Of a stretch of DNA of 58,821 nt, positions 4,621-43,247 are shown piece after piece; position 1 is the first letter of the stretch, and each line of letters opens with the position of its first letter. The stretch comes from a virus: the IMG/VR virus record IMGVR_UViG_3300037875_000261, one strand, 5' to 3'. The translations under genes and the position numbers were made by a program. The notes below the pieces were generated by a model. It saw only the letters and a list, made by a program, of their open reading frames with translations, had not been told where the DNA came from and did not search any database.

Positions 4621-4662
4621 CCGCCCGTGGAGGCCCACGCGGGCGACCTCGCCCACATCGGC

Positions 4663-4705: not shown

Positions 4706-4722
4706 TCGGGGTCGGGGTCGGG
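4695..4722 (+). other. G-run array ((GGGGTC)n), a G-quadruplex-type motif
   Basis: Plus-strand G-runs GGGGG, GGGG, GGGG, GGGG and GGG separated by 1-2 nt. Confidence 0.5.
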
Positions 4723-4826
4723 CCGACAGGGAGTGAGGCGCGCGTCCCACCCGCAAGGTCGCGGTCATCCCTTGGGCAAGAGAGGCTGACCGCTACCAAA
4801 AACGAGACGCGCGCCCCGTGATCCCC

Positions 4827-5117: not shown

Positions 5118-5135
5118 GGGCTCCGTCCGTTCCGT

Positions 5136-5792
5136 CTATCGGACTCGCTCGATCTGGGCGAACGATCCGGCAAGCAGCGTGCAAGAAGTTGTCGTCGTGC
5201 CGTCGCGCTGAGTCTGGAGGAAAATCGTATCGCCGCTGGTGACGGCGAATCGTTCGCTGATGGTCGATCCGCTCTCGACCTGCCCGTTCGCGTTCCTGTG
5301 GTACGACTGGTTCCAGACCCCGTAGCTCGCGACGCCTCCAACGGCGAGACGGTTCTTGATGCTGACGCGAGTTCCCGCCGACGTGGAGTAGACGTTCATC
5401 TCGACGCGCACCTCGCCCGTGAAGTTGCAGGTGACGAGCTGCGCGGTCTTCGTGGTCGTCTCAGTGAAGTCGACGTTCGGATCCCAGCCCGTCTTGTTCT
5501 GGTTGAAGATGTCGACCTGCGCGAACGAGGCGTTGTTGATCTCGTCGCCGACGCGCCCCTTCATCTTGATCCACGATCGCGTGCCGTCGTCGACGATCAG
5601 GTTCTCGTCCATGTCCAGATCGCCGGTCATCGCCGTCGATCCGTCGACGTCGAGGCGCGCGGCCAGACCAGTCGCGATCGAGTCGAGCAACTCTTGTAGG
5701 TCGTCGCCGGTCAGGCCGGACACGGCGGAGAGGATCGGGATCATGCGCGGGTCGGGCGCGGACGATCCGGGGTATCTGAGGTTCGATGACAT
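5136..5792 (-). CDS. tail fibre-like protein (218 aa)
   Basis: LDVDGSTAMTGDLDMDENLI resembles the common fibre repeat (GG..MtG.L.m..n.I). The C-terminus is beta-rich. The position follows the J-like gene. Confidence 0.55.
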   Translation of the reverse strand: MSSNLRYPGSSAPDPRMIPILSAVSGLTGDDLQELLDSIATGLAARLDVDGSTAMTGDLDMDENLIVDDGTRSWIKMKGRVGDEINNASFAQVDIFNQNKTGWDPNVDFTETTTKTAQLVTCNFTGEVRVEMNVYSTSAGTRVSIKNRLAVGGVASYGVWNQSYHRNANGQVESGSTISERFAVTSGDTIFLQTQRDGTTTTSCTLLAGSFAQIERVR

Positions 5793-5795
5793 GCG

Positions 5796-6203
5796 TCAGG
5801 CCGAGACGTCCTGCTCGAAGCGCGCAACCCAGCCGACGACCTTGATCTTGTCGGCCACGGGGGGCTCGACGCCGATGGTGTAGGTGGCACCCGTCACGTC
5901 GCGGCGAAAGCGTTCGCCCTGCAAGACCCAAGCGTAGCCCTCGGGCGGCACGACGACCTTGACGGTCCCGTTCGTCTCCGCCCCGCCGCTGCCACCGATC
6001 GGATTCAAGACGATGTCGACCGTTCGTCGAACGGTGTCGATGTTGAACAGCTTGAGCGACACGGCGTCGATGTACTCGCGCCCGGCGATCGCGTGGGCGG
6101 GCACCTGATGAACAGCCGTGATCGCGCCGGTCGTGCTCAAGCTGAGAGGGAAACCATCCGGCGAACCGGACAGGGACTCGGTGACGACTTCTTGCTCGGC
6201 CAT
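5796..6203 (-). CDS. hypothetical tail-associated protein (135 aa)
   Basis: Complete ORF packed between the J-like gene and the fibre gene. Confidence 0.5.
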   Translation of the reverse strand: MAEQEVVTESLSGSPDGFPLSLSTTGAITAVHQVPAHAIAGREYIDAVSLKLFNIDTVRRTVDIVLNPIGGSGGAETNGTVKVVVPPEGYAWVLQGERFRRDVTGATYTIGVEPPVADKIKVVGWVARFEQDVSA

Positions 6204-6204
6204 A

Positions 6205-11232: not shown

Positions 11233-11705
11233 TGCGTTCGCCCCGACAGGAAGTGAGACGGCAGACGGTATACGCAGATCACGCGACGGGCGAGGGCCAG
11301 ATGTCCTCGCCGCTTGAATACGTTGCGTCCTTGCGTCGCCGTCAGGAACTCCGGGCCGCGCTCGTTCACAAGAATGTCGATGTGATACTCGCACGCGACG
11401 CCACGGTCGCTGGACATCGACAGCACGACATCGAACAACTGCTTCGCCTGCGCGAGATCGTCACCGATCGCGACCCACGACGTGCCCGGAGGTAACGCGG
11501 ACGCGTCGGCGACGAGAGTGCTCTCCATGCGCGGCCTGTACGGGAAGCCGTGGGCGCGATACGGGATCCCGGCCTCGCGGCATACGGTCGCCGCGACGCC
11601 CTCGCAGTCCAGACCGCCGTCGGATTCGACGTCGACTCCTCCGCGCACGAACGGCTTGCCGATCAGATGATCAACTCGCACCTGGGTCGTCCGTCCGCGC
11701 ATCAT
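11229..11705 (-). CDS. NlpC/P60-type tail peptidase (gpK / GTA g14-like, 158 aa)
   Basis: GKPFVRGGVDVESDGGLDCEGV matches the NlpC/P60 catalytic-Cys context. The ATG overlaps the upstream stop. Confidence 0.65.
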   Translation of the reverse strand: MMRGRTTQVRVDHLIGKPFVRGGVDVESDGGLDCEGVAATVCREAGIPYRAHGFPYRPRMESTLVADASALPPGTSWVAIGDDLAQAKQLFDVVLSMSSDRGVACEYHIDILVNERGPEFLTATQGRNVFKRRGHLALARRVICVYRLPSHFLSGRTQ

Positions 11706-12376
11706 GATCGCCCCTTCGGAATACCGGGGAACGCGCCGAAGTTCTTCGGGTGGTTCTTCGTGACGCCTGTCAGAACCTCGTCGGCCCCGACGAGTTCGCA
11801 CGCGGTGTAGTCGTATCCGGGGCACTCCGTGTACGCAGCGCCGATCGTCTCAAGGTTGTAGCCGCATCCGGGTCCGCCGAGGAAGTATCGGCACTTGCGA
11901 CGGGAGAAGAGACTGCCCGGCACCTTGGCCTTGTAGAGATTCGACGCGCCGATCTCCAGCGCGACGACGTCCGCCGTGCATCTCGTTCGGACGATCTCCG
12001 CGTTCTCGATGATCGCGGTCGACGGGTTCGACAGCTCCTTCTCCGACACGATCATGATTCGAGCCGCCCGCCCGGTGAAACCGTCGCCGACGTCGATCGC
12101 GGTGCTGACCAGGATCGAGTTGCCGATGTTGATCGTGATCGTCGGCAGGTCGCCGTTGATCGCGTTCTTGATCCCCCCGTGCGCGATGGACGCGGGCGAG
12201 TAGGTTATCGGCACGCCGTCGTCGTCCTCACCGAAGTTGACAGCCGTGGTGCTGTTCGTCATCCGGTATCGCTTCGTCGGGTCGCTCGCGTCCTCGAACT
12301 CGTAGAGCCAGATGAACGGGGCCTCGCTCTTCAACTGGCGCGCGTGCAGCGTCGTCACCTGGGAGACGCTCTTCAC
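11702..12376 (-). CDS. minor tail protein, gpL / GTA g13-like (224 aa)
   Basis: C-terminal 4-Cys cluster KCRYFLGGPGCGYN...ECPGYDYTACE, and the position lies before the K-like gene. Confidence 0.55.
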   Translation of the reverse strand: MKSVSQVTTLHARQLKSEAPFIWLYEFEDASDPTKRYRMTNSTTAVNFGEDDDGVPITYSPASIAHGGIKNAINGDLPTITINIGNSILVSTAIDVGDGFTGRAARIMIVSEKELSNPSTAIIENAEIVRTRCTADVVALEIGASNLYKAKVPGSLFSRRKCRYFLGGPGCGYNLETIGAAYTECPGYDYTACELVGADEVLTGVTKNHPKNFGAFPGIPKGRS

Positions 12377-23276: not shown

Positions 23277-23739
23277 CTGAACCACCTTCTGGAGAGCGGT
23301 CGACCGACTCCGGCTCCGCGCCCGACGCGGCGGCTGCCGCCGACGCCGAGATGCGGCTCGTCGTCTTCTTGCGGCTCTTCTTCTTCGCCTGCCTCGGGGC
23401 CGAATCGGCGAGCGCCTCCTCAGGCGTCATGCCGGGATCGCCCACGGCGTGGCGCAGCTTGTCGCGCATGTAAGCCGCCGCGCTCGGCGACGGCTTCACG
23501 GGCGGCGGGGCACCCTTCAGCATCCCCGACGACATCACCTCGACCTTGTGCATCTCGTCGTCCAGCGACGATCGCTCAAGGTCGTTCGTGACGATGATGA
23601 TCTGGTTCGCAGCGGCCCAGCACGTCTCGGACGGAAACAGCCCCCACGCTCGGGGGAAGTGAACCGCTCGACCTGCGCGCACTTTGTAGCTCATGCCGAG
23701 TGCAGCCTTCGGCAAGCCGTTGTCGTTTCGTGTCGCCAT
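23269..23739 (-). CDS. hypothetical head-module protein (156 aa)
   Basis: Complete ORF with a Lys/Ser-rich tail. Confidence 0.5.
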   Translation of the reverse strand: MATRNDNGLPKAALGMSYKVRAGRAVHFPRAWGLFPSETCWAAANQIIIVTNDLERSSLDDEMHKVEVMSSGMLKGAPPPVKPSPSAAAYMRDKLRHAVGDPGMTPEEALADSAPRQAKKKSRKKTTSRISASAAAAASGAEPESVDRSPEGGSDE

Positions 23740-23822
23740 GTGCTTCTATCCTCGTTTCGTATGCGGGTGGATAAAAGCGGGGGGGGCGAGGAGCACTCGC
23801 CCCCCCCGCGTCGCGTATCGGA

Positions 23823-24257
23823 TCAGACGGAGAACGTCGCGTCGTTCGCGGACGTCATGTCCACCGAGCCATCCTTCGGGCTGGACAGCACGAACGACGC
23901 GCTGATAGCGGTCGTGCCGCCTGCCCCCGAGTTGTAGACGGCGCGGATGAACTCCGGCTGCTGTTCGAGGTCGATGACGCCCCAGAAGATCGTGTCGTCG
24001 TCGGTCGCCGTTACGGTGATCGACGCGCCCGCGATCGGGTTCGCCTCGTACGCGGCGTCGACGTCCGTCGCCGACATCTCGATCGTGAGGGTGCCGTCGG
24101 CGGATGCGCCGACGGTGCCCGTCGTGACGACGACCATGCAGCGCCGCCACCCGACGGTCGAGAAGCCTGCGCCCTCGACCTCGGTGGATAGCGCGATGAC
24201 CTGGGGAGAGATCGACGCGCGGACGTTCCTTGTTGAGCCCGGATCTGTGCGGACCAT
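23823..24257 (-). CDS. beta-rich protein after the capsid gene, a possible decoration protein (144 aa)
   Basis: Strong AAGGAG RBS. Position only. Confidence 0.5.
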   Translation of the reverse strand: MVRTDPGSTRNVRASISPQVIALSTEVEGAGFSTVGWRRCMVVVTTGTVGASADGTLTIEMSATDVDAAYEANPIAGASITVTATDDDTIFWGVIDLEQQPEFIRAVYNSGAGGTTAISASFVLSSPKDGSVDMTSANDATFSV

Positions 24258-24312
24258 GAGTTAGCTCCTTAGTTTCTGTTTCGTTGAAGAGTTGGAGGTC
24301 GTCGAGGTCTGA

Positions 24313-25572
24313 CTAGATGCCGGTGACGTCGAGGCCAGTTGCGAACGAGAATGCGGTCGGCTGCTCGATCGCGACGTCGATTTCCATCGCCGCGAGCAGA
24401 GCGGCCTGACGCGCCTTGAAGGTGCCGTCGGCCTCGGTGGTCATCTCAAGGGTGAGGTTTCCGAAGGTGACGATCGTCATCCAGTCGAAGTCCCCGAAGA
24501 TGAGGTCTGAGGTCGCCGTGCTGTCAAGCAGCGACGTCGCGGCGAACGGGTAGCCGATCACCTGAGTCTCAGCGCCCTCGCTGAAGATCTTGTGCGGGAC
24601 GGTCAGGTGTACGCCGGTCGTGGCTTCCGAGCTGATCGAGCGCATCGCGCGCTTGACCGTGAGGCCCATCGCCCAGCCGGGCGAGACAGCGCCGTCGAGA
24701 GCTTCCGCTTCGGCGACCTTCTCCTCCATCTGAAGCAGACCCTCGTAGAACGAGGCGAGCACGTTCGCGCCAGCGATGTGCGAACCGAAGGCCACGCCGT
24801 TACCCGACGGGATCGAGTTCGCCAGACCGCGCGGCTCACCGTCCGCCCCGGTGCCCTTGAGCGCCCAGGTATTCCAGGTGATGCCGATCTCGCGAAGCAT
24901 CCGAGAGCGAATGCGCGACTCGGCGTTGACGCCAAGCTCGAAGAACTTGCGCGACCCCTTGAGGTAGCTCACCGCCGCATGACCTTCGAGGCGCATGTTC
25001 TGGTACGCGATCTCGGAGGTCGTCGCGGGCGCGGCGTTCTCGGCGACCGCCTCGGTCGTCGGGACGCTCGTCTCGATCGGGATCTCGACGACGCTCACGC
25101 CGCCGCTGTCCATCGTGTTCGCGCCGAGCTTCTCGGTGATGAGTCGCGGTCGCAGCTTCTCGATGAACTTGTCGTGCCAGACGGCGTTCGGAACGATGAA
25201 GCCGCCCTTCGTGCCGACGGTCGTGTCCTGAGCGTACCGCTCTTCGCCGTCAAGCTCACCGCGCGCGGCGTCCGACATCTCCCACTCCATCGGAGCGAGG
25301 CTGCGGTCGCCGTGCAGCAGCGACTTCGTGATGCGACCCACGGAGAACTCCTGTCCCTCATGCGTCGCGTCTTCGGAGCCGGGCACCATGCCACGGCGAC
25401 GCTTCTTCTCGACGGCCTTGAGGCGCTCGTCGTATTGCTCCATGCCGACCTTGATGGCCGTGAGGGCCTCCGACTGGGAGGCGAGCCCGTTCTCGACGGC
25501 AGCGCCGACGAGTTTGGCAAGGCGCTCCTCCGCTTGCTTCCGGGTCTTCGCCCGAAGTGTGACCTGAGTCAT
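24313..25572 (-). CDS. major capsid protein, HK97 fold (419 aa)
   Basis: Frame 24313..25719 trimmed to the ATG at 25572 (MTQVTLRAKTRKQAEERL...). It has an N-terminal delta-like helical region, and the length and position are typical. Confidence 0.8.
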   Translation of the reverse strand: MTQVTLRAKTRKQAEERLAKLVGAAVENGLASQSEALTAIKVGMEQYDERLKAVEKKRRRGMVPGSEDATHEGQEFSVGRITKSLLHGDRSLAPMEWEMSDAARGELDGEERYAQDTTVGTKGGFIVPNAVWHDKFIEKLRPRLITEKLGANTMDSGGVSVVEIPIETSVPTTEAVAENAAPATTSEIAYQNMRLEGHAAVSYLKGSRKFFELGVNAESRIRSRMLREIGITWNTWALKGTGADGEPRGLANSIPSGNGVAFGSHIAGANVLASFYEGLLQMEEKVAEAEALDGAVSPGWAMGLTVKRAMRSISSEATTGVHLTVPHKIFSEGAETQVIGYPFAATSLLDSTATSDLIFGDFDWMTIVTFGNLTLEMTTEADGTFKARQAALLAAMEIDVAIEQPTAFSFATGLDVTGI

Positions 25573-25609
25573 GTCTGTTTCCTTCGTTGATGTTTCGGCG
25601 GAATGCCTG

Positions 25610-26872
25610 TTACTCGGCGTCGGCGAGCGCCTCGATCTCTTCGTCGGTGAAGAGGCCGATGTAGATGCTCTCGTCGATGCCTTCGGGTTCGCCGTCGCCG
25701 TGCTCGTCGAGCGCGACATCGGTGGTCTTTTCTTCTTCGTCCTCGACGTCGTCGAGGCCGAACATCTCGATCAGCGGATCGGCCTGAGCGACTCGCGCTT
25801 CGAGGGCTCCGACGCGGTCGAGCAGAGCGGTAAGCTCCTCGGCGAGTTCGACGACCCGCTCGACGCCGCCGTCGATCTTCGTCACGGGCGCGACCGCGAC
25901 TTGGGGCGTCTCGGCCACCGGGGTCTTCTCGTACGCGATCTCCTCCTCGTCGGCGGCGATGTCCTCGCTCAAGGCTTCCGCCTCGGCTTCGTCGAAGCTC
26001 TCGCTGCCGTCGTCGTCGAGGTCGTCCTCGTCCTCGATCACGCGGCCCCCCTCGTCGATCGCGTACCACTCGCCGCCGCCGAGCGTGATCTGGAAGCGGT
26101 CGTCAGACTCGCAGCCGACGACGTGATCCATGAACTGCTGAATCATCTCCTCGTCGTACACGCCAGCCTCGCGCCACTCAGCGATCGTCGCGTTGAGCTT
26201 GCGGCGGCGGGACATCGCGTCCTCGTCCGACTCGCCGTACATGACGAGGGCCTTCTCGTCGCGACCGACGTCGACCGCGCTGAACTCCGTCGCGCGCGTC
26301 TTGTCGTACACGATCGACCCCTGGTCGACGCCGTACTGCTTCTCCTCGCGCCCGTTCGGCAGGCGTGATTCGAGAATGCGGAAGCCCATCGACCCGGCGG
26401 GCATCGAGCCATTCAGCACGGCGGCGTGGATCATGTCGGCGAACGGGTTGTCGCCCTCGGGGGTGAAGCGCACGTCGCCGAGCCATGCCTTGTGACCGTC
26501 GGGCGTCTTGCCCTTCACGACCTTCGGCACGTTCCCGAGCGGCGGCTGGGGGATCGCGCTCTTGCCGTGCATGAACAGGAAGGGACCGCCGCGATCTCGG
26601 AACTGCGAGAAGTCCATGCCGTCGCGTAGCGGCAGGTCTTTGAAGTTGCCGATCGCGTGCTCGCTGATCATGACGTAGCGGATCGGGTCGCTGAACTTGT
26701 CGGCGGTCGACTTCGGCGCGACGTACGAGACGTTCGCGTACCTCACGAACTCCGACTCGCCGCGAATCTTCAGCGCCTCTTCGACGGGGATGTCGGCGAA
26801 CTCTTCGCGGGTCGCGGTGCCAGCGGCGTAACGCTTCGCAAGATCGAACCAGCGTTTCGAGATGTATGCCAT
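25610..26872 (-). CDS. prohead protease fused to an acidic scaffold-like C-terminus (420 aa)
   Basis: S78-like elements (HAIGNF..., GSMGFRILE) followed by an Asp/Glu-rich helical tail. It lies between the portal and capsid genes. Confidence 0.65.
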   Translation of the reverse strand: MAYISKRWFDLAKRYAAGTATREEFADIPVEEALKIRGESEFVRYANVSYVAPKSTADKFSDPIRYVMISEHAIGNFKDLPLRDGMDFSQFRDRGGPFLFMHGKSAIPQPPLGNVPKVVKGKTPDGHKAWLGDVRFTPEGDNPFADMIHAAVLNGSMPAGSMGFRILESRLPNGREEKQYGVDQGSIVYDKTRATEFSAVDVGRDEKALVMYGESDEDAMSRRRKLNATIAEWREAGVYDEEMIQQFMDHVVGCESDDRFQITLGGGEWYAIDEGGRVIEDEDDLDDDGSESFDEAEAEALSEDIAADEEEIAYEKTPVAETPQVAVAPVTKIDGGVERVVELAEELTALLDRVGALEARVAQADPLIEMFGLDDVEDEEEKTTDVALDEHGDGEPEGIDESIYIGLFTDEEIEALADAE

Positions 26873-26875
26873 GAT

Positions 26876-29272
26876 CTATGCCTTCTTCTTCGCCGACTTG
26901 AGCGGCGTGAACTTGTGAACGCGGAACGCGCAGCGGCAGTTGACGACCTCGCCAGCGGGCGCGTTCTCGTCATGCGGATACCGCAGCCCGTTCGAGAACT
27001 TGCTCCCGAGCTTCACGCGGGTGCGGTGTACCTTGAGGTGGGAGTCGCGGGTCACGTTGTCCCCGACCGCGAGCCACTCGATCTCGCTCACGACCTCGCT
27101 CGCCTTCATCTGCGTGAAGCGCGCGCCGTTCTGGGCGATGCCCGTCTCGGTGCGAGCGATCGCGTTCGCGCGAGCCTCCTTCGTTCCGAACACTCGACGA
27201 AGATTCTCGGTGAGCTTCGGAAGAGATCGCTGCACCATCTCACTCAGCAGCATCTTCTTGCCGCCCGGAGACGAGAGGCCCTTGAGCAGATTCGATCGAA
27301 CCGTCTTCGCGAGCGTACCGGTCACGCCCTCGGTCAGCGCCACCTGATGCGACGCGAGGAAGTTGACGACCGACGGATCGGTGACGGTGACGAAGTTGCC
27401 GCCGATCGCCCCGAGGTCGCGGGCCGTCTGGCGCAGCGCCTCCTCGAACAGATCGCGAATCACCGCTCGCGTCTTGCGATCGAGGGACTCGGCCCACGTC
27501 TCCTCGTTGAGAAGTAATGCCTCGATGTCGTCTTCGGTCAGGTCCGACGCGAGGATGCGCTTCGTCAATGACAGCCCCGCGTTCTCGCTGTTCTTCGACT
27601 TCGACGCGATCTTGCGCAGCTTCGCGATCTGCGCCTTCTCGAACGCACCCAGCCACGAACTGATGCGCGCGCGCAGCTTCGGGTCGGGCTCTATCGAGAG
27701 CCCGTACGTCAACGCGTTGTCGTCGCCGTCGCCGAGGCGCAGTTGTGCGGACGTCCCGAAGTCCGTCGATGCCGCCAGCGCGGGAGCATGTCGCCCCGGA
27801 CCTTGAGCTTCAACGGCTTCGAGAACATCAAGGCTCGCGGAGATCAGCCGGGTGTCACCGCCCTCTGTAGTATCTTCAGCCTCGATGCCGAGTTCGGCTT
27901 TGGCTTCGTTGTAAGAGACTCCGACACCCTGCGCGGCGATATCCGCCGCGACCTTGAGCTTGTCGCTGCTGTCCTCTTGCAGCGCCTTGACGTTCGACGA
28001 GTCGAAGGTCGCGCGCAGCGTAACCGCTCGCAACTCTCCGAGCTGCGGCGACAGGCGACCGATGAACTTGTGCTGGACGATGTCGATCGTGAGGTCGGCG
28101 AACGCGAGGATCCCGTTCGGGCCGGTCCACATCTCGCGATGGGCCGTCTCGATGTTGTTGTACGTCGCGTCCGTGTACACGCCGATGACCGGAGGCGGCA
28201 CGCCCATCCCCGAGCAGATCGCGTCACGCGTCCACTCGAACATGCTCATGTACTCCATGTCCTTCGGCTTCGTCGTGTTCGGCACGAACTTCGCCTTGCG
28301 ATCGAGCAGCTTGTACCGACCGGCGTCGTCGCTGTTGAACTGTTCGTCGGCCTCGTCTTGTCGACGCTGAAGCTCACCCGACGTCAGGCGCTCGTCGAAG
28401 ATGATGAAGCCGCCGGGGTCGCCGCCGTTGCGCACCGAGCTGTCGAGGTAGCGCATCCCCTGGAAGTACAGGTCGACCTCGCGGAACAGCGCCTTCACGT
28501 CGCCGAGTCCGCGCACCGGGTTGTCGGGATCGTAGTCGCAGAAGTGAACGACCTCGGTGCGATGGAAGACCTCGCTGTACTGGATCGAGTTGCCCTTGCC
28601 GCCGAGCGGGAACCTGAACCACTCGGGCATGCCGAGCTTGTCGACTTTGTGCTCGACCTGATCGCCGCGCACGATCAGGATCTGATCGGGCATATCGGTG
28701 ATGACCATCTCGTCGCGGTTCGACGACACGGGCTCACCGTCGTCGTCCATCAGGAACCAGAACACGTCGCCGTCGAGCAGGAAGTTCGTCGCGTGCGCGC
28801 GCCAGAACTCCGCCTCGGTCTGCATCGGGTTCGGGTCCGCCAGCAGTTCGAGGATCGGGTGATCGTCGAGCGCCTCGATGTCCTTGTCGAGCGGGTCGCC
28901 TGGGAAGAGCTTGAATTCAAGCTGGCCGAACCCCGCGCGCTTCGCCTTCGCGCAGGCCCGGATCCAGACGTTCTCCTCGAACGGCTTCTCGGCCTTCTCC
29001 TTGTCGCCCAGCGAGTTGCGGATCGCGAAGCCGATGCCCGAGTCGAAGAACCCAGTCTCCCCGCCGTTCAGCATCGTCGTGTCGTATCGACCGGGGCCGT
29101 TCTTTCTGAACAGCGCGTTCCCGTCGTTGTCGAAGAAGCGGGGCGCGACGAGCCCCCCGCCGTTGCCGCCGCCAGCGTCGATCAGCTTCGCCTTGAGCCC
29201 ACCGGGGGCCGGTCCCCTCTTCGGGACGCTCGCACGGTTCCATCGCTTGCGATTGGTACTGACCACGAACAA
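26876..29272 (-). CDS. portal protein fused to a Mu F / SPP1 gp7-like head morphogenesis domain (798 aa)
   Basis: Portal signature ILELLADPNPMQTEAEFW...LLDGDVFWFL. The C-terminal part GDNVTRDSHLKVHRT...EVVNCRCAF is MuF-like. TTG or GTG start. Confidence 0.8.
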   Translation of the reverse strand: MFVVSTNRKRWNRASVPKRGPAPGGLKAKLIDAGGGNGGGLVAPRFFDNDGNALFRKNGPGRYDTTMLNGGETGFFDSGIGFAIRNSLGDKEKAEKPFEENVWIRACAKAKRAGFGQLEFKLFPGDPLDKDIEALDDHPILELLADPNPMQTEAEFWRAHATNFLLDGDVFWFLMDDDGEPVSSNRDEMVITDMPDQILIVRGDQVEHKVDKLGMPEWFRFPLGGKGNSIQYSEVFHRTEVVHFCDYDPDNPVRGLGDVKALFREVDLYFQGMRYLDSSVRNGGDPGGFIIFDERLTSGELQRRQDEADEQFNSDDAGRYKLLDRKAKFVPNTTKPKDMEYMSMFEWTRDAICSGMGVPPPVIGVYTDATYNNIETAHREMWTGPNGILAFADLTIDIVQHKFIGRLSPQLGELRAVTLRATFDSSNVKALQEDSSDKLKVAADIAAQGVGVSYNEAKAELGIEAEDTTEGGDTRLISASLDVLEAVEAQGPGRHAPALAASTDFGTSAQLRLGDGDDNALTYGLSIEPDPKLRARISSWLGAFEKAQIAKLRKIASKSKNSENAGLSLTKRILASDLTEDDIEALLLNEETWAESLDRKTRAVIRDLFEEALRQTARDLGAIGGNFVTVTDPSVVNFLASHQVALTEGVTGTLAKTVRSNLLKGLSSPGGKKMLLSEMVQRSLPKLTENLRRVFGTKEARANAIARTETGIAQNGARFTQMKASEVVSEIEWLAVGDNVTRDSHLKVHRTRVKLGSKFSNGLRYPHDENAPAGEVVNCRCAFRVHKFTPLKSAKKKA

Positions 29273-29329
29273 AAGTTAGAACGCGAACCAGTAGCGCGCA
29301 GCTTTTCGTCTACTCAGAAAGGGGTGCCC
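29273..29329. promoter_or_regulatory. divergent intergenic region between the portal gene and the plus-strand cassette
   Basis: It is visibly more A/T-rich: acaaaagttagaacgcgaaccagtagcgcgcagcttttcgtctactcagaaagggg. GAAC-N18-CGTC is ECF-promoter-like. No -35/-10 element was assigned with confidence. Confidence 0.3.
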
Positions 29330-29530
29330 TTGGATAGTCACAATCAGAGCAGCGCGGGCAGGCCGAGGCTCGACGACAGTAGCATCAGGGACAAGCTCAT
29401 TTCGATACGCTTGTCGTCCAGCGAACTCGCGCAACTCGCGCGGGTCGTGCCACCGAACAAGACCCTGTCGTCATGGATGCGTACGATGCTGCTGCGCATG
29501 GCGAACGACAACGAGGAAAGGGACCGATGA
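29330..29530 (+). CDS. ribbon-helix-helix (CopG/MobC-like) protein (66 aa)
   Basis: TTG start 6 nt after GAAAGGGG. GRPRLDD..ISIRLSSSELAQLARV...LSSWMRTMLL is a typical RHH pattern. The stop overlaps the next ATG (ATGA). Confidence 0.6.
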   Translation: MDSHNQSSAGRPRLDDSSIRDKLISIRLSSSELAQLARVVPPNKTLSSWMRTMLLRMANDNEERDR

Positions 29531-30075
29531 CATACGAAACGATCGCGGCTCAAGACACACTCAGCGAAACGCGCGACAAGCTGAACGGGTTCACGACACG
29601 CACCATCCTCCTGCCCATGCGACGCTACCAGTGGAGCGCGGGCGGCACGTCCATCGGCCAGTCGGGCGACGCCGTCGTCGAGTCGTTCACCCTCGGCGAC
29701 AAGTGCAACGGGCTCTTCATGTTTCCCGACGAGTTCGACGGCGCGGCGAACGCGACGATCAAGCTATACCTCGCGCCCGATACATCAGTCTCGGGCAAGC
29801 AGGTTTCGTTCGCCGTGGACGTCACCGCGATCAAGATCGGCAGCGCAGTCAACGTGGCAGAGGGAACGGTTCTGGTCACGGATCTCGTCGTGCCGAACAC
29901 CGCGCACGAACTCTTCGTCGCGACGATCACGATCGACGCCGGGACGTATCTGAAGACAGCCGACCCCGACTTCCTCGGGTTGCAGTTCTCGTTCGAGCGC
30001 ACCGCGCCGACGACCGCGCACAGCGGGGAGATATACACGCCCGCCGCGACCATCACCTACAGCATCGAGAGGTAG
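29527..30075 (+). CDS. beta-rich hypothetical protein (182 aa)
   Basis: Frame 29473..30075 trimmed to the ATG at 29527 after GGAAAGGGA. No family recognised. Confidence 0.55.
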   Translation: MTYETIAAQDTLSETRDKLNGFTTRTILLPMRRYQWSAGGTSIGQSGDAVVESFTLGDKCNGLFMFPDEFDGAANATIKLYLAPDTSVSGKQVSFAVDVTAIKIGSAVNVAEGTVLVTDLVVPNTAHELFVATITIDAGTYLKTADPDFLGLQFSFERTAPTTAHSGEIYTPAATITYSIER

Positions 30076-30079
30076 CGCC

Positions 30080-30592
30080 ATGAGAGCAGGCAGCGCATTC
30101 GCCCCGACGACCCTCGCCCTGTTCGCGTTCGCGACGATGGCGCTGCCGATGTCCGCGCCCGATCCGGCGCGGGATCACTTCTGGCAGCAACGCGGCACGC
30201 TCGTCGACGTCGTGAAAAGGCCGGGCCACGTTGCGGAGTACCGCCTCAGCTTCGGGCCGCAGCAGTCGTACGAGGGCAGCGGCGGCGGGCTCGGCTTCGA
30301 GCGTCGCGTGTTCGAGAACGGGCTGACGTACATCGACCACGGCGAGCCGCCGTTCCGTCAGTGGCGCGACGAGTTCACGCAAGACGAACTCGACGCGTGG
30401 TCGGACGCCGGGCACGTCATCCCGAGCTACACCGCACCGATGCGCGTGCTGCATCCCGAGACGTACGCGATCATCCTGACGCAGCACCGTCGCGTCGAGA
30501 ACGGCGACCGTGACTATCTGTTCGGCGGCGTGCAGATCGTGACGCGAACGCAGTACGAAGAGGCGTGCGAGTTCCTCGGGGTCGCGCCTTGA
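30080..30592 (+). CDS. secreted hypothetical protein (170 aa)
   Basis: N-terminal signal-like segment MRAGSAFAPTTLALFAFATMALPMSAP. Confidence 0.55.
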   Translation: MRAGSAFAPTTLALFAFATMALPMSAPDPARDHFWQQRGTLVDVVKRPGHVAEYRLSFGPQQSYEGSGGGLGFERRVFENGLTYIDHGEPPFRQWRDEFTQDELDAWSDAGHVIPSYTAPMRVLHPETYAIILTQHRRVENGDRDYLFGGVQIVTRTQYEEACEFLGVAP

Positions 30593-30720
30593 TCCGCGCG
30601 CCCGCCTCCGTCGTCGTCGAGCGCATCCGGCAGATCGTGCAGCTACGAGACGACGGGCAGATCACCGACGACGAAACCCTGCGCGCCATCATGCGCGTGC
30701 TCACGAAAGGACTGGAATGA
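30589..30720 (+). CDS. small coupled ORF (43 aa), not in the ORF track
   Basis: The TTG start overlaps the upstream TGA (TTGA) and its own stop overlaps the next ATG (ATGA). It reads LIRAPASVVVERIRQIVQLRDDGQITDDETLRAIMRVLTKGLE. Confidence 0.35.
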   Translation: MIRAPASVVVERIRQIVQLRDDGQITDDETLRAIMRVLTKGLE

Positions 30721-31409
30721 GAAAGCTACTCACGACGATCGTGCTCCTGATGCCGCTCGCATCCTGCAAGCTCAACGACATCGCGCGACCCGAAGACATC
30801 GCCGCAATCGAGCAGGCCGAGCAGGCGCGAGACGCCGCGCTCGTACTGCAAGACGAAGCCGAGGCCAGAGCGAAGGCGACCGCCGAGCGGTTGAAGGATG
30901 CCGTCGCGTCAGGCAACTCGCTCGCGTTCGACATGGAGCGCGTTCAGCTCATGGAGGAACTCGAACAGCTTGAGGCCGCGATCGCAGCAGCCGCCGCCGA
31001 GCAGGCGGATGTGCAAGCCGCGTTCACGACCGCGAAGGACAACGCGACCGTGCCGCTGCTCTCGGCGATCGCCCCGTTCGTGCCCGCACCACTCAAGCCG
31101 TTCATCCCCCTGACCTCGACGCTCGTCCTGCCGTTCCTGTTTCCGCGCGGACGCCAGAACATCAGGCGCGCGGTGAAGGGCGCGGCGAAGGGTAACGCCG
31201 CCGCCGTCATCCGTGGCGTGCTCGGATCCGTCGGCGCGATGCACACGGCGGGCTCGTCCGAGGATGTGCTCAAGGCGGCGGCTGCCGTACTCCGCAAGGA
31301 GAACGTCGAGAGCGGTGCGATGGAAGTTGAACTCGCAGACATCGCCGCGAGGATTCGCGACGGCAAGATCGACGCGGCTGCCGCAGCCGCCAAAGCGAAC
31401 GCTGCTTGA
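30717..31409 (+). CDS. lipoprotein with coiled-coil and internal hydrophobic segments (230 aa)
   Basis: Signal plus lipobox MRKLLTTIVLLMPLASC. Ala/Glu-rich helices. Hydrophobic segment PLLSAIAPFVPAPLKPFIPLTSTLVLPFLF. Confidence 0.65.
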   Translation: MRKLLTTIVLLMPLASCKLNDIARPEDIAAIEQAEQARDAALVLQDEAEARAKATAERLKDAVASGNSLAFDMERVQLMEELEQLEAAIAAAAAEQADVQAAFTTAKDNATVPLLSAIAPFVPAPLKPFIPLTSTLVLPFLFPRGRQNIRRAVKGAAKGNAAAVIRGVLGSVGAMHTAGSSEDVLKAAAAVLRKENVESGAMEVELADIAARIRDGKIDAAAAAAKANAA

Positions 31410-31528
31410 CGCGTCGACCCGAGGGAGGGCACACGGAGCGCGACCCGATACCGCCGCAACTCAGGATCCTGATCTGGATCATGCTCGGCGTGGTCGCGGT
31501 CCTCGCGCTCGTCGACCTCGCGAAGTAG
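31406..31528 (+). CDS. small membrane peptide (40 aa), not in the ORF track
   Basis: The TTG start overlaps the upstream TGA (TTGA). TM segment LRILIWIMLGVVAVLALV. The terminator follows. Confidence 0.35.
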   Translation: MTRRPEGGHTERDPIPPQLRILIWIMLGVVAVLALVDLAK

Positions 31529-31552
31529 AGCCCGACTTCTGCGCGGGCACGA

Positions 31553-31597
31553 AGAAGCCCCCGGCCCGGCACTCGCCGAGTCGGGGGCTTCTCTTTC
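31553..31597. terminator. bidirectional intrinsic terminator between convergent genes
   Basis: Perfect 10-bp stem gaagcccccg (31553-31562) / cgggggcttc (31581-31590), then tctttct on the plus strand. Confidence 0.6.
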
Positions 31598-32334
31598 TAT
31601 CCGGCAGTGCGCGCAGCCCAGCCTGTCGCCTTGCGTACGTCCCGCTGCGCCCTCGCGAGCAACTTCTCGACCCGCGACGCCTCCTGCTCGTAGCGCTCGA
31701 CACGCGCGCTCGCGCGGGCCAGCTTCTCGACCCATCGGTCGTGCGTCGACGTCGCCGCCTTCGATGCCGCGACGCGAGCCTTCGCCTTGCGCTTCGTCAC
31801 GCCGGGCGTCGCGCTGTCGCGCAGCTTGCGCATGTCGAGCTTCGGCCAGCCCTTCGCGAGCGCCTTGCGCATCAGGATGCGCATCGTCTGATGCGCCTTG
31901 TCGAACTCGGGGCCGTGCGGCTTCGTGCCGGGGCGCTGCTCGTTGTGGCCCATCTCATGCGCGAACGTGCGGAGCCCGTAGACCTTGAAGGTCGCGTCGC
32001 GCACGGGCTTCTTCCCCGCGAGGTACGCCTTGCCGATCGAGCCGAACTGCGGTCGAGTGATCCAGAGCTGCCGACGCCCGTATGTGCCGTACCCGAGGTT
32101 CCCGCTCTCGCGGGTCATCGGATAGATGCGGGACTCTCTGTCCATCGCCTTCGCGATCGCGCGACACACCGCAACCCCGACGCGTTGATCGTGCGTCAGT
32201 GCGACGTGTGTCCAATCGCGCATCACCGACAGCGACTCGTAGATGTAGCGACCATCTTCGTGACGACCGGCGTACGTCAGTCCTGTCTGATCCTTCTTGC
32301 GTTGCTTCACCGGGTAGGTAATTTTCGCAGTCAT
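31597..32334 (-). CDS. HExxH zinc-metallopeptidase-like protein (245 aa)
   Basis: Frame 31597..32406 trimmed to the ATG at 32334 (MTAKITYPV...). Motif FAHEMGHNE. Basic coiled-coil C-terminus. Leader CACCACCACTTTGACAACACGAAAGAAGAGAGACATG. Confidence 0.55.
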   Translation of the reverse strand: MTAKITYPVKQRKKDQTGLTYAGRHEDGRYIYESLSVMRDWTHVALTHDQRVGVAVCRAIAKAMDRESRIYPMTRESGNLGYGTYGRRQLWITRPQFGSIGKAYLAGKKPVRDATFKVYGLRTFAHEMGHNEQRPGTKPHGPEFDKAHQTMRILMRKALAKGWPKLDMRKLRDSATPGVTKRKAKARVAASKAATSTHDRWVEKLARASARVERYEQEASRVEKLLARAQRDVRKATGWAARTAG

Positions 32335-32404
32335 GTCTCTCTTCTTTCGTGTTGTCAAAGTGGTGGTGCGTCGGGCGAACCGTTTCGCCCGCGCCTCTGA
32401 ACCC

Positions 32405-32413
32405 ATTATAACA
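32405..32413 (-). promoter_or_regulatory. extended -10 promoter element TGTTATAAT
   Basis: The minus strand reads TGTTATAAT (TGnTATAAT consensus) inside the most A/T-rich stretch of the window, about 70 nt upstream of the ATG at 32334. Confidence 0.4.
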
Positions 32414-32650: not shown

Positions 32651-33295
32651 TCACCGCAACGTGTGAGCGCCATCATCGACGTCAGCATAACCCAACCCGG
32701 CGCGCTTCGCATTCGCCCGCATCCCGTCCTTGGCCTTCTCGACTAACTGGCGTACGCGCTCGCGAGTCACGACGCCGATGCAGTCGTCGTGCTTGATCGA
32801 CTCCAGCGTGCGTCCCATCACGATGTGCTCGTACGCCGCGTGCCGATGTCGCGGCTTCACGCCGTAGAACAGGCGGTCGATCATGTCGCGGAACTCGACG
32901 CCGTACGTCGTGTCTTCGAGATCGGCGTCGGGCTGCGCGACCGTCGCGAAGAAGTCGTCGCCCTCGTCGTCGCCACGATCGGGCGACGACACGCGCGCGG
33001 TCGCGTGGAACTGGTTGCCGCCCGGTGTCCCCGCCGCGTGTCGAATGAAGTCCCACACGGCACCGCGCACCTGCCAGTACGCGCACGTCGTCCACGCACC
33101 GCGCGCCGGATCCCATCGGTCCTTCGCGGCGATCAGCCCGACGCGACCTGCTTGCAGGAGGTCGTCGCGATCGAAGCAGACCCGATAGCGTTCGTGCAGC
33201 GCCCACGCGAAGAACTGATGCACGACGCGCTTCACGATCCGGTCGTGGTCGATCACGTCGATGTCGTCGGGGCGCGCCGGTCGCTTCGTCTTCAC
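32651..33295 (-). CDS. sigma-70-family RNA polymerase sigma factor with regions 2 and 4 only (214 aa)
   Basis: Region 2 DDLLQAGRVGLIAAKDRWDPARGAWTTCAYWQVRGAVWDFIR. Region 4.2 IGVVTRERVRQLVEKAKDGMR. The GTG start overlaps the terminase stop (GTGA). Confidence 0.8.
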   Translation of the reverse strand: MKTKRPARPDDIDVIDHDRIVKRVVHQFFAWALHERYRVCFDRDDLLQAGRVGLIAAKDRWDPARGAWTTCAYWQVRGAVWDFIRHAAGTPGGNQFHATARVSSPDRGDDEGDDFFATVAQPDADLEDTTYGVEFRDMIDRLFYGVKPRHRHAAYEHIVMGRTLESIKHDDCIGVVTRERVRQLVEKAKDGMRANAKRAGLGYADVDDGAHTLR

Positions 33296-36213: not shown

Positions 36214-38523
36214 TTACCAGTCGTTCGCGCTCATGTCGCCCTTGAGGTTTCCAAGCGCGGTGAAGACGACGCCGAACGCTTGCCGATACGTCGCTGCCCC
36301 GTCGGTTCGCACGCCTTGAATGCTCTGACCGCCCGGCGTCGTGTCCGTCGCCAGTTCCCACGGGTCGGCGTCGCCCGTCGTCGATCCGTCTGCGTTGCGC
36401 AGCTTGTAGAACGCCCGCCCGTTCTGATCCGTGTGGCTGGCGGCGTTGCCCGTCGCGCCTGACGACGGCAGACCGTTCCGCTCGATCAGCTTGAACAGCC
36501 CGATGATGTCGCCCGATCCGGGCGGCGTGTACAGATCGTCCGTGACCCACATCGTCAGCGACCGCACCTTCGTATCGGATCCCTCGTCCTTCAGGTTCGT
36601 CGTCGTGTTCAGCGTCGGGTCGCCCGTCGGGATCACCAGTTCGGAGAACGACTGCTTGCGCCTCTCCGTGATCGAGTAGCTCGGCGCGTGCTTCCAGTCC
36701 GTGCGCCAGCTCGCGCCGACGCCCGGCTCGCTCGATGCGCCCGACGTGTGCGTCGTGCGCGCGACGTATATCTCGCCGTCTGCGCCCTTCGTGTGCGCGT
36801 TGATCGCGAAGGCCACGCCGCTCGCCCACGCGATCGCGTTGCCCATCCCGTGCTCGTAGTTCCAGTTCAGCGTCCGCATCGCCGGGAGCAGCGACGTGCC
36901 GTCGACCGGGCGACCGTCCGTCACGATGTCCGTCACCTTCGAGCCAGCGATCTCGATCAGCGTCTGGTGCAGATCGGGACCGAGATCGACGAGCGCGTCG
37001 CACTTGCGATTGTTGCCGCGCACGAACCGCACCGGCCCGTTGACGATCAGCGGAACGCGGATGCCCATCTCGTAGCACGACCGCTTGTACCTGCGCTGCC
37101 GACCGGCCTCGCCGTCCGCTCGCGCGTGATCGTGAACCGCCTCCATCGTCGCGCCGAACGTGCGAGCGAAGTCGCCCGCCGTCACAGCGCCGTCGGGATG
37201 GTCGGCGTCGTCGACCTCCGCGCCGTCGCGCATCGAGTCGATGATCTCTTGCGACGTGCCGTTGTCGCTGGTGATGATGAAGATCGTGTTGTCGCGCACC
37301 CCCGACGACATGCCGGTCAGGAACCGACCGAGATGCGTGTCGAACGACTCCAGCATCCCGCCGCTGATTCCCGCGAGCCATGACTCGTCGCTGTTCAGGA
37401 ACTCGGGCGTCGTGACGTCTGCGCGAGGCGCTCCGTCGTACCACGGCGAATGCACCGCGTTAGCCGGGCAGTACATGAAGAACGGCTTCGTCATGTCGCG
37501 CTTGTTCGCGCCGGTCCAGTTGCCCGTCCCCTCGCCGTTGTCGCCGTTGACGTAGTCGATCATCTCGTCGAACGTGCGCTTGATCAGCCACTGCGCCTCG
37601 CCGACGTTCTCCTCGATCACCTTCGTCGAGGTCGTCGTCTCCTTCGTGCATGACGTGTAGTTGTCGTAGCCTGTCGACCGACCCTCGAATACCGGCTGCC
37701 CCGGCTGAATGCCTGGGCTCGGCGAGCCCTTCGGGTTCTGCCACAGCACGAACCCTTTCTCGAACTGACCGACAGCCGTCGAGCCGTCCGTCGTCACGCC
37801 CGTGAAGATGTGCTCCCAGCCCGGCCCCTCGCTGCCGTCGAGCTTGCGCATCACCGTGTCGGGCGAGTCGTTCGTCGTCATCGTGTCGTCGCCCACGCCG
37901 AGGTGCCACTTGCCGAAGATCGACGTCTCGTATCCCTTCGCCTTCATGTGGCGGGCGATGCTGTACTCGTACTTGTGATCGGGGTCGCCGAGGAACTGAC
38001 CGCCCGCGCCGACGACGAGGGACTGGCCGGGAACGATCTTGCCGTCGGCGACCGTGTACTCGACCTGCCCGCCGATCACCCACGTCATGCCCGTACGCGA
38101 CGGGTAGCGTCCCGAGATGAACGACGCGCGCCACGGAGTGCAGACCGGCATCGCTCGCGCCTGCGAGAACACCACGCCCGACGACGCGAGCGAATGGATC
38201 GTCGGCGTGTACGGGTAGACCGCATCCGCCCCGCCGTCCTTGAGGTAGTCGCCCGACGTCCACGCGTTCTCGTCGACGGAGTTCGCGCCGTACCCGTTGC
38301 CGTATGTGTACAGCAGGTCGATGCCGATGTCGTCGAGCACGATCAGCACGACGTTCGGTCGCTCGCGGTTCGCGTCGGGGTACGTCGCGACAGTCGCGCC
38401 AACGCCGAGCGGCTTGGCGGCTGCGACCGTCGCGCCCTCCGCCTGCTGCACTGTCGCCGTCGGCTTCGCCCCCTCCGCGAACGGGAGCGGTGCGGGCGTC
38501 GGCGTCGTCGGTGTCGTGCTCAT
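36214..38523 (-). CDS. sulfatase (alkaline-phosphatase superfamily, Cys-type) with a long C-terminal extension (769 aa)
   Basis: Metal-site start VVLIVLDDIG. Formylglycine motif CTPWRASFISGRYPSRTG (C-x-P-x-R...G). No N-terminal signal peptide is visible. Confidence 0.75.
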   Translation of the reverse strand: MSTTPTTPTPAPLPFAEGAKPTATVQQAEGATVAAAKPLGVGATVATYPDANRERPNVVLIVLDDIGIDLLYTYGNGYGANSVDENAWTSGDYLKDGGADAVYPYTPTIHSLASSGVVFSQARAMPVCTPWRASFISGRYPSRTGMTWVIGGQVEYTVADGKIVPGQSLVVGAGGQFLGDPDHKYEYSIARHMKAKGYETSIFGKWHLGVGDDTMTTNDSPDTVMRKLDGSEGPGWEHIFTGVTTDGSTAVGQFEKGFVLWQNPKGSPSPGIQPGQPVFEGRSTGYDNYTSCTKETTTSTKVIEENVGEAQWLIKRTFDEMIDYVNGDNGEGTGNWTGANKRDMTKPFFMYCPANAVHSPWYDGAPRADVTTPEFLNSDESWLAGISGGMLESFDTHLGRFLTGMSSGVRDNTIFIITSDNGTSQEIIDSMRDGAEVDDADHPDGAVTAGDFARTFGATMEAVHDHARADGEAGRQRRYKRSCYEMGIRVPLIVNGPVRFVRGNNRKCDALVDLGPDLHQTLIEIAGSKVTDIVTDGRPVDGTSLLPAMRTLNWNYEHGMGNAIAWASGVAFAINAHTKGADGEIYVARTTHTSGASSEPGVGASWRTDWKHAPSYSITERRKQSFSELVIPTGDPTLNTTTNLKDEGSDTKVRSLTMWVTDDLYTPPGSGDIIGLFKLIERNGLPSSGATGNAASHTDQNGRAFYKLRNADGSTTGDADPWELATDTTPGGQSIQGVRTDGAATYRQAFGVVFTALGNLKGDMSANDW

Positions 38524-38541: not shown

Positions 38542-39099
38542 CTAGTCATTCGCGACCTCGATCCCGTCTTCGACATCCGATCCCTTTCGCCTCTTGAATC
38601 CCCTGTACTCCATCCACGACCAGAACCCCGCGATCAGCGCCATGCCCACGCCCGATAGAATCTTGCCGAGCATCCCGGCCCACCACGGCTCGTCGGCGTC
38701 GGGCGGGGGGTCGGGACCAATGGGCGCATGCTGAATACGCGAATCGCTGTCGGCGTCGCCGCCGATGGCTCCACCCCCGCGCGTATCATCTTGACTGCCC
38801 CCACCGGCCCCGGTGTGCGCGTCGATCTCGTCGTGCGTCGCTTCCGTGATCACGTCGCGCAGCCATCGCCGCATGACGTCGTGATCGTCCGCGCCCTCGC
38901 CCTCGACCCATCGGCGCAAGCGCGACGGTGCCGAGAACGTGAGCGCACCGCCGACCGTCGTCTGCTCCGTGTCGTACTGACCGGCGCTCGATCCCGCGCG
39001 CGAGATTGTCCCGCCGCCCCTCTCGACGTAGAGCGTGAGCGAAGGCAACGCGCACGCGGTGACGCCGATCAGGAGAAGAACGAGCGCGAGGCGATTCAA
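38542..39099 (-). CDS. lipoprotein with a C-terminal TM segment (u-spanin-like architecture, 185 aa)
   Basis: A TTG start gives (M)NRLALVLLLIGVTAC, a signal plus lipobox. C-terminal TM GMLGKILSGVGMALIAGFWSW. Confidence 0.45.
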   Translation of the reverse strand: MNRLALVLLLIGVTACALPSLTLYVERGGGTISRAGSSAGQYDTEQTTVGGALTFSAPSRLRRWVEGEGADDHDVMRRWLRDVITEATHDEIDAHTGAGGGSQDDTRGGGAIGGDADSDSRIQHAPIGPDPPPDADEPWWAGMLGKILSGVGMALIAGFWSWMEYRGFKRRKGSDVEDGIEVAND

Positions 39100-42980: not shown

Positions 42981-43247
42981 TCACCCCGAGATCTCCCTCA
43001 AGATCAGACCGCAAAGAACCACAGTCGCAACTCCGAGCAGCCACTTCAGTACCTGGGCTTGATACTCAAGCCTCTGAAGTACCTTTGACTGTCGCTCCAC
43101 AGACTCCTCCAGCTTCTCGAAGGAACTGATGAGGTGCGCGGTCTTTGTGCTGAGTTCGATCATTTCAATGTTCGCGACCATCACCTGATTCGACAGGTCG
43201 TGAGTCCTTTTTCTTAGAGCGTCCATCCACCTGCTGTCCTCTGCCAT
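42981..43247 (-). CDS. coiled-coil protein with a C-terminal TM segment (88 aa)
   Basis: Tail of frame 42981..43886 from the ATG at 43247. TM WLLGVATVVLCGLIL. The DNA is visibly more A/T-rich than its flanks. Confidence 0.5.
   Translation of the reverse strand: MAEDSRWMDALRKRTHDLSNQVMVANIEMIELSTKTAHLISSFEKLEESVERQSKVLQRLEYQAQVLKWLLGVATVVLCGLILREISG

Follow-up and report, generated by a model that had tools for sequence, protein, structure and literature searches.

The window analysed here, the whole 58.8-kb stretch of IMG/VR record IMGVR_UViG_3300037875_000261 (65.5% GC), comes from an uncultured tailed phage whose genes lie nearly all on the minus strand. Its gene content includes a portal/Mu-F fusion, an HK97-type capsid, a tape-measure protein, a large terminase, a sulfatase and an extracytoplasmic function (ECF)-like sigma factor, and identical or near-identical copies of the phage occur on more than ten public contigs. 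Between the portal gene and the gene for an HExxH protein lie six coupled open reading frames (ORFs) on the plus strand, spanning 29330–31528 and termed the cassette below. They encode a ribbon-helix-helix (RHH) protein, a β-rich protein (p182), an exported protein (p170), a small soluble peptide (p43), a lipoprotein (lipo230) and a transmembrane (TM) peptide (tm40; Table 1). The original prediction, made from the letters and their ORFs, had read the cassette as an autonomously regulated moron, with plausible roles at the envelope.

Table 1 Coordinates of the cassette genes, the elements that flank them and an exported family of related loci
Feature	Coordinates	Strand	Description
RHH	29330–29530	+	66 aa, TTG start; best coding score in own frame
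p182	29527–30075	+	182 aa; conserved 25-residue N-terminal peptide and variable β jelly-roll body; candidate virion adhesin/receptor-binding protein
p170	30080–30592	+	170 aa, exported; candidate secreted or signal-anchor-release (SAR)-type endolysin of an undescribed family
p43	30589–30720	+	43-aa soluble helical peptide; TTG start within TTGA overlap
lipo230	30717–31409	+	230-aa lipoprotein, lipobox LASC; candidate outer-membrane-acting partner
tm40	31406–31528	+	40 aa, TTG start, one TM segment; candidate membrane-depolarising (holin-like) or regulatory peptide
Portal gene (Phage_portal + Mu F-like fusion)	26876–29272	−	Pfam PF04860 1e-40, PF04233 1e-11
Divergent intergenic region	29273–29329		57 nt between portal start (29272) and RHH start (29330); ~57% GC
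Stem-loop	31553–31597		45 nt, G+C-rich, ~17 pairs; separates the converging genes for tm40 and the HExxH protein
AIRHAENGxAGREYG family (related loci)	L026:3475–3948 (−), L015:8757–9374 (+), L032:723–1283 (+), L037:145–552 (+), L018:34–321 (+)		Exported family between terL and portal

To judge coding capacity, we compared the six frames by codon log-odds, the model being trained on the long genes of the phage. For every cassette ORF its own frame is the best of the six, with GC at third codon positions (GC3) of 0.79–0.88; this includes p43 and tm40, which score 0.42 and 0.47. Across the window, the plus-strand ORFs of at least 40 aa that win in their own frame are those of the cassette and one marginal ORF at 11550–11810. 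The cassette ORFs are the sole plus-strand genes of the phage, in agreement with the first description of six coupled plus-strand ORFs in an otherwise minus-strand genome. That description counted three overlapping junctions; there are four (ATGA at 29527 and 30717, TTGA at 30589 and 31406), and the fifth junction is a 4-nt gap. On public copies of the phage (L004–L008), automatic callers have placed an antisense ORF of 51 aa over RHH (29276–29434, minus strand; GC3 0.51), which is non-coding, and p43 and tm40 are left uncalled in several public assemblies. All three products are therefore missing from database protein sets. The cassette is 99.96–100% identical among the near-identical contigs L004–L008, and these carry no codon-position substitution signal.

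The six proteins find zero matches above threshold in Pfam, PHROGs, NCBIfam and PADLOC, and the cassette DNA is unmatched among GenBank phages. Signal peptides, lipoproteins, TM segments and coiled coils were assigned throughout with hydropathy scales and motif rules. On these, three products are predicted to be exported or membrane-bound, as first proposed, from the lipobox of lipo230, the TM segment of tm40 and the weakly hydrophobic N terminus of p170.

Related loci were fetched through portal homologues of 40–49% identity, by exact-protein look-ups and one metagenome scan. Many of the 29 loci recovered are near-duplicates, and we estimate about ten distinct lineages; a portal profile run against species-representative genomes, in search of prophage relatives and hosts, returned none. 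Querying the 2805 ORFs of these relatives with RHH (phmmer) gives 14 matches (best E = 2.4e-4), all in the slot just upstream of the portal gene. Iteration with jackhmmer extends the orthologues to 21 of the 29 loci, always divergent from the portal. A homologue of p182, recognized by a family hidden Markov model (HMM), lies immediately upstream of the portal in 20 loci out of 29; in 17 it shares the portal strand, and in three (L009, L011 and L016) it has the opposite orientation, which is also that of the window. In most loci p182 and RHH converge, their 3′ ends overlapping, and RHH in turn diverges from the portal. L011 and L016 instead have the portal, then an RHH-like ORF, p179 and a 105-aa ORF reading away from it, with a stop/start overlap as in the window; here the RHH-like ORF was missed by the HMM and recognized by eye. 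Judged by gene order and homology, RHH and p182 are clade-core genes fixed beside the portal, and the p182 gene would have been inverted in the window lineage and hence be read after RHH. The 29 loci hold no homologue of p170, p43, lipo230 or tm40.

This distribution bears directly on the moron, in which all six genes would have been gained as a unit with their own RHH repressor, promoter and terminator, serving a dispensable envelope function. Part of that picture stands: the block lies on the strand opposite everything else, starts in an A/T-richer region and ends at a strong hairpin, and its distal four genes are lineage-specific, missing from the relatives. But RHH and p182 keep their position across the clade, most relatives have a solitary divergent RHH with p182 read together with the portal, and the six genes did not, on this evidence, arrive jointly. 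The cassette also matches the rest of the genome in base composition, and the proposed promoter string is indistinguishable from chance (see below). Since RHH is kept beside the portal clade-wide, it would not be the private repressor of an imported cassette. We therefore consider a single autonomous moron improbable.

The window RHH protein itself remains below any Pfam gathering score (DUF6290 only, E = 0.019, 15.6 bits against a cutoff of 27), and we assign it to the NikA/MobC-like class because of the profile matches of its positional orthologues rather than its own sequence. The family profile matches PDB entries 2kke (5.9e-6) and 2ba3 (NikA; 0.026), and 6 of 12 family members match the Pfam NikA-like entry (best 7.3e-6). 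The gene product is thus predicted to be a NikA/MobC-type RHH DNA-binding protein, which upholds its first annotation. It resembles 2ba3 and 2kke in its basic arm, its β-strand followed by two helices and its small size, and differs from NikA/MobC systems in having no relaxase partner. Phage RHH repressors are known from the immI region of P22, where they are Arc and Mnt. The window likewise has a divergent gene within the late region, here without an ant-like gene; unlike both immI and NikA/MobC, the phage RHH is fixed beside the portal across a whole clade. It would bind the short shared control region and govern its own transcription, the onset of the structural (portal-to-tail) operon, or both. 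RHH and the fibre-like gene beside the portal offer a new conserved landmark for annotating genomes of the clade, and RHH is a candidate late-gene switch.

A toxin–antitoxin-like pair headed by RHH had also been suggested; RHH would be the antitoxin, and the toxin would be p182 or one of the genes after it. The sub-threshold match of RHH to DUF6290, which we take to be an RHH antitoxin-like family, and the overlap of the RHH stop with the start of the next gene would fit such a pair. Against it, p182 is a fibre-type jelly-roll (see below), RHH stands alone and convergent with p182 in most relatives rather than being co-transcribed with it, and PADLOC is unmatched by all six proteins; the likelihood that we attach to this proposal is close to negligible.

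For p182, a word-indexed homologue search returned the same phage only, and five matches with a family alignment. An exhaustive profile search gathers 215 relatives, in many of which the matching ~130 aa form the extreme C terminus of proteins of 300–1400 aa. Ten of these long proteins were scanned, and their N-terminal parts match the PHROGs ‘tail fiber protein’ and ‘central tail fiber J’ (P0138) and Pfam FNIII-A_GpJ. The original prediction had called p182 β-rich and pointed to structure prediction and Foldseek as a check. An AlphaFold2 (AF2) model from a 10-sequence alignment is an all-β jelly-roll (predicted local distance difference test (pLDDT) 72, predicted template-modelling score (pTM) 0.70). 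Foldseek relates it to carbohydrate-binding modules (CBMs; CBM15, CBM36 and CBM11 are top in the PDB), the lambda tail-tip protein J and viral fibre and tailspike proteins, all at modest template-modelling scores of 0.45–0.65. Homologues that proved to be virion structural proteins had been named at the outset as a refutation of the moron, and p182 falls in a tail-fibre C-terminal domain family.

The first 25 residues of p182 share 48% pairwise identity, against 16–28% for the body, and residues 9–20 are of low confidence in the monomer model. Because the N terminus is conserved and the body variable, we interpret p182 as a docking peptide carrying a variable binding domain. Its conservation, together with its membership of a fibre-domain family, therefore argues for a core virion adhesin rather than a moron gene, and from sequence and model p182 is probably a core structural protein, virion adhesin-like or an accessory receptor-binding protein. 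The domain is shared with the extreme C termini of J-like (P0138) and tail-fibre-PHROG proteins and the fold with the lambda tail-tip complex and CBM jelly-rolls. Unlike lambda J or side tail fibres, p182 is free-standing, has its own conserved N-terminal peptide and is encoded beside the portal, outside the tail module. The phage also has a lambda-J-like central fibre at 6205–11394 (phrog_31 match, 1e-74).

In five loci a gene encoding a Calx-beta protein (~1635 aa) has its stop coupled to p182. Giant Calx-beta proteins (1633–2170 aa) lie just upstream of p182/portal in L010, L013, L014, L019 and L025 (~2100–7340) and in L012 (3116–9628), and a conserved 145-aa β-rich protein precedes them. 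These giants lack counterparts in the window and match no PHROG; they may be head or tail fibres that dock p182.

The distal part of the cassette is best approached through p170. A scan of species-representative genomes found a sole homologue, a 175-aa protein 67% identical over the mature domain. It is encoded on L038, part of a 39.8-kb contig (G001:C283, comprising L040 and L041; C283 below) binned in a Planctomycetota metagenome-assembled genome (MAG). Among 401 Planctomycetota genomes, p170 recurs only in the MAG that bears C283; p170 has zero relatives in IMG/VR, and the C283 homologue is unmatched among GenBank phages. C283 is a whole phage-like genome: the sizes of some of its genes fit terminase, portal and capsid, and its tail genes are large. 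Beyond p170, what it shares with the window is limited to a weak match of a sulfatase-like protein of 772 aa (23466–25784; E = 5e-12 to window 36214–38523). That the p170 homologue is binned with a Planctomycetota MAG, and that each phage has a sulfatase, suggests a Planctomycetota-like diderm host.

In C283 the p170 homologue comes last in a trio of overlapping genes. The first member is a 126-aa lipoprotein with lipobox LLAAC, a C-terminal TM segment and a charged tail, the layout of a unimolecular spanin (u-spanin). The second, of 99 aa, has an N-terminal TM segment and a charged coiled coil and is holin-like or inner-membrane-spanin (i-spanin)-like. On a circular reading of the contig, the trio comes after the structural genes. 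It would have a textbook lysis-cassette layout, with the identities of the partners assigned by architecture alone. A p170 gene is thus clustered with lipoprotein and TM genes in both phages, with lipo230 and tm40 in the window and with the lipoprotein and the TM/coiled-coil protein in C283. C283 encodes a second lipoprotein at 27456–27794 (112 aa), an Ala-rich helix with a C-terminal TM segment that resembles the N-terminal half of lipo230 and is not homologous to it.

The N termini of the two p170 proteins are mutually non-homologous and of the same character. Residues 4–26 of p170 are weakly hydrophobic; in both proteins the hydrophobicity of the segment is marginal, Gly, Ala, Ser and Thr account for 57% of it, and a Pro comes next. 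On a crude scale, Hessa sums are +1.7 to +3.3 for the p170 segment and −1.0 to −0.1 for residues 7–27 of the homologue. Marginal hydrophobicity and richness in Gly, Ala, Ser and Thr are features of SAR domains, and cleavage by signal peptidase I is disfavoured when Pro occupies +1.

Our preferred explanation, to which we give somewhat less than an even chance, is that the cassette is a composite operon. It would join a conserved regulator and a conserved fibre-like adhesin to envelope genes confined to this lineage, which would carry out lysis; p170 would be their exported endolysin and would represent a new family. The enzymatic part of this proposal is drawn from a single independent gene neighbourhood and from the lack of alternatives rather than from a catalytic signature. 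A lysis cassette was among the roles first considered, and it is strengthened by the occurrence of the sole p170 homologue in a lysis-like trio of another phage. Consistent with the earlier report that the genome has no recognizable endolysin or holin family, Pfam finds no lysozyme, amidase, peptidase-type endolysin or holin family in the 52 other proteins of the phage (~58 scanned overall); nor is a canonical spanin recognizable.

In this composite operon, p170, p43, lipo230 and tm40 would be a lineage-specific insertion supplying host lysis. p170 would be exported with its weakly hydrophobic, SAR-like N terminus uncleaved and would degrade the cell wall upon release. tm40, in the inner membrane, is the candidate trigger, and lipo230 would be an outer-membrane lipoprotein that aids the breach of the last barrier. 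The charged N terminus of tm40 is followed by a single strong C-terminal TM segment (Kyte–Doolittle 2.73 over residues 14–40, Hessa sum about −1). lipo230, of which ten contigs carry identical copies, has its lipobox at residues 14–17, with Lys at +2. An Ala/Glu-rich helical region, a Pro-rich hydrophobic stretch (111–141) and an Ala-rich C-terminal region make up the rest. The lipobox had been recognized correctly. The hydrophobic stretch is predicted not to be TM-like: its Hessa sum, a crude measure, speaks against insertion, and beyond the signal peptide every segment stays below 1.6 on the Kyte–Doolittle (19) scale and has an unfavourable Hessa sum. Searches of IMG/VR with lipo230 gave zero relatives, and p43 has a sub-threshold match to Pfam SHOCT (E = 0.078).

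Several observations weigh against this explanation. p170 is unmatched in Pfam, PHROGs, NCBIfam, PADLOC and the PDB, as is a two-sequence profile in the PDB. Its single-sequence AF2 model is unusable (pLDDT 42), and no muralytic motif or fold could be shown. The family has two members in the data searched, and the association with lysis-type genes comes from a single independent context. Lysis genes behind RHH are odd in themselves, as the RHH orthologues bear housekeeping-type promoter motifs and tight control would be needed. A holin has at least one TM helix and a charged hydrophilic C-terminal tail, and is usually at least 50–60 aa long; tm40 ends one residue past its helix, has no charged C-terminal tail and, at 40 aa, is shorter than any holin we know of. 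lipo230, for which no C-terminal TM segment is predicted, is rejected as a u-spanin. A better candidate lies elsewhere in the genome, a 185-aa lipoprotein (38542–39099, minus strand) with a C-terminal TM segment, a charged tail and thus the full u-spanin layout. Two coiled-coil proteins of 96 and 88 aa (4827–5117 and 42981–43247, both minus strand), each with one C-terminal TM segment, are holin-shaped. These three membrane proteins and a 94-aa protein with lipobox LAAC (57076–57360, minus strand) could be part of the lysis system.

SAR-endolysin lysis cassettes, which combine the endolysin with a small holin and spanins, are known from phage 21 (S21/R21/Rz/Rz1), and Lyz of P1 is a SAR endolysin. 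The cassette resembles these in its small overlapping genes and in p170, an exported globular protein with a weakly hydrophobic N terminus rich in Gly, Ala, Ser and Thr. As in phage 21, there is a lipoprotein and a small TM protein, and the C283 trio likewise comes after the structural genes if the contig is circular. Unlike the endolysins of phage 21 and P1, p170 finds no match among known muralytic families and folds. Unlike the phage 21 cassette, the block reads in the direction opposite to the structural genes and comes after a regulator gene and a fibre-like one. tm40 has one TM segment in 40 aa and no charged tail, and lipo230 is neither a typical outer-membrane spanin (o-spanin) nor a u-spanin. 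gp11 of T1 is a unimolecular spanin, and lipo230 shares its N-terminal lipoprotein signal. It differs from gp11 in having no predicted C-terminal TM segment, in its larger size and in its Ala/Glu-rich helical region and Pro-rich stretch. The full layout of lipobox and C-terminal TM segment is found instead in the 126- and 112-aa proteins of C283 and the 185-aa protein of the window.

A further account extends the lysis proposal. p170 would found a family of exported SAR-type hydrolases of phages of Planctomycetota-like hosts, swapped between unrelated phages with non-homologous partners, and RHH would be a clade-wide structural-gene switch that captured lysis genes, so timing assembly and lysis together. 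We think this fuller version unlikely, while still worth entertaining.

The position of the block behind p182 also invites a reading as receptor masking or superinfection exclusion, in which lipo230, p170 and tm40 would block the receptor recognized by p182, sparing the cell and the progeny. In T5, the exclusion lipoprotein gene llp adjoins the receptor-binding protein gene pb5, downstream of it, and Llp and the Cor lipoproteins of T1-like phages block receptors against superinfection and the trapping of progeny on debris (PMC9586334). With p182 homologous to the receptor-binding ends of tail fibres, and given its proposed role, the window would repeat this adjacency of a lipoprotein gene and a receptor-binding-type gene. 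The lipobox of lipo230 has a residue other than Asp at +2, the block is lineage-specific as expected of genes that track receptor specificity, and the housekeeping-type promoter motifs of the RHH orthologues would suit early expression. Llp and Cor, however, are single small proteins, as are the known exclusion lipoproteins generally, whereas four genes follow the fibre-like gene here and the lipoprotein is of 230 aa; nor is there similarity to the Llp or Cor families in PHROGs or Pfam. The sole p170 homologue lies in a lysis-layout trio, placed after the structural genes if C283 is circular, and lysis genes are not identified elsewhere in the genome. On balance exclusion, the leading alternative to lysis, seems rather unlikely.

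A glycan-handling module would instead group a soluble carbohydrate-binding p182 with p170 and lipo230. Together they would bind or remodel a polysaccharide of the host surface, which may be the sulfated compound that the sulfatase acts on, and would have no part in the virion or in lysis. The CBM folds at the top of the PDB matches to p182, and the sulfatase-like protein of ~770 aa encoded by both p170-bearing phages, favour such a module. Yet p182 has no signal peptide, and only as part of the virion would it come into contact with surface glycans. By sequence it is related to tail fibres, and the conserved peptide at its N terminus has the look of a docking element. The prospects of this idea appear slim.

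Under the composite operon that we prefer, an apparent moron can prove to be an assembly of core and lineage-specific genes. The four-gene block, with a p170 family common to two unrelated phages, is a testable candidate for a new endolysin class. The lysis assignment would be an entry point to how phages of Planctomycetota-like hosts breach an unusual envelope; the papers searched held nothing on lysis genes of phages infecting such bacteria. Should lysis fail as an explanation, the block would consist of ordinary orphan envelope genes of modest interest.

In the relatives, too, the interval between terL and the portal carries exported or membrane genes, non-homologous to those of the window. 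L026 has an opposite-strand block of four genes that includes a 77-aa protein with two TM segments and a conserved exported protein of 157 aa; L031 has a lipoprotein between terL and the portal, and L011 a TM protein and a lipoprotein. An exported family of ~130 mature residues with an invariant AIRHAENGxAGREYG motif occupies this interval in at least five related loci (Table 1); its L026 member belongs to the four-gene block and neighbours the 77-aa protein. Searches of Pfam, PHROGs and the PDB with this family gave nothing significant (best ‘tail lysozyme’, E = 0.037); it could be the endolysin of that sub-clade. Kinship between p170 and the exported family of L026 and L015 was ruled out, at a profile–profile probability of 0.4%.

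The HExxH protein downstream of the cassette (31597–32406, minus strand) contains HEMGH followed by PHGPEF, which we take to be a SprT-like metalloprotease signature rather than that of an endolysin-type peptidase. A signature of the same type (HEVAH...HGRLW) occurs in a protein at L026:4848–5504 (plus strand), between terL and the portal and not homologous to the HExxH protein.

At the start of the cassette, the claim of an A/T-richer region is borne out, with 57% GC over 29200–29424 against 65.5% for the genome. The GAAC-N18-CGTC string reported there exists (29285–29310, plus strand). It is no promoter evidence by itself, because the degenerate, ECF-like pattern GAAC-N16-19-CGTC is too common in the window (50 matches against ~32 expected). 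A sigma-70 scan of the cassette start region found no promoter, and no operator repeat could be established between the portal and RHH starts. Upstream of RHH in at least eight relatives is a conserved bipartite promoter-like motif, of a TTGACA-N12-TACAGT type in L014, L019, L025, L026, L028 and L035 and a TTGACT/G-N16-17-TAAGAC type in L020 and L036. The short-spaced type resembles the Caulobacter-type housekeeping consensus TTGACGS-N10-14-GCTANAWC. The closest copy in the window is TAGACG-N13-TACTGG at 29291–29315, on the other strand and oriented toward the portal gene. It is possible that the plus-strand operon is under the phage's own sigma factor (32651–33295).

At its other end, the cassette closes with the stem-loop between the convergent tm40 and HExxH genes. 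An 86-nt segment around it (31525–31610) folds with a centroid energy of −35.4 kcal/mol (z = −3.83; equalled by 0 of 200 shuffles). The bidirectional terminator first described there is upheld as to the strength of the hairpin and less so as to its T-tracts, which are weak on both strands and leave it unflagged by a simple terminator scan; it is probably a bidirectional terminator.

The one marginal plus-strand ORF outside the cassette (11550–11810, 86 aa) has an own-frame score of 0.12 and lies inside a 198-aa minus-strand call (11229–11825, GC3 0.73); gene calls in this lambda K/I/J-like tail region may be open to revision.

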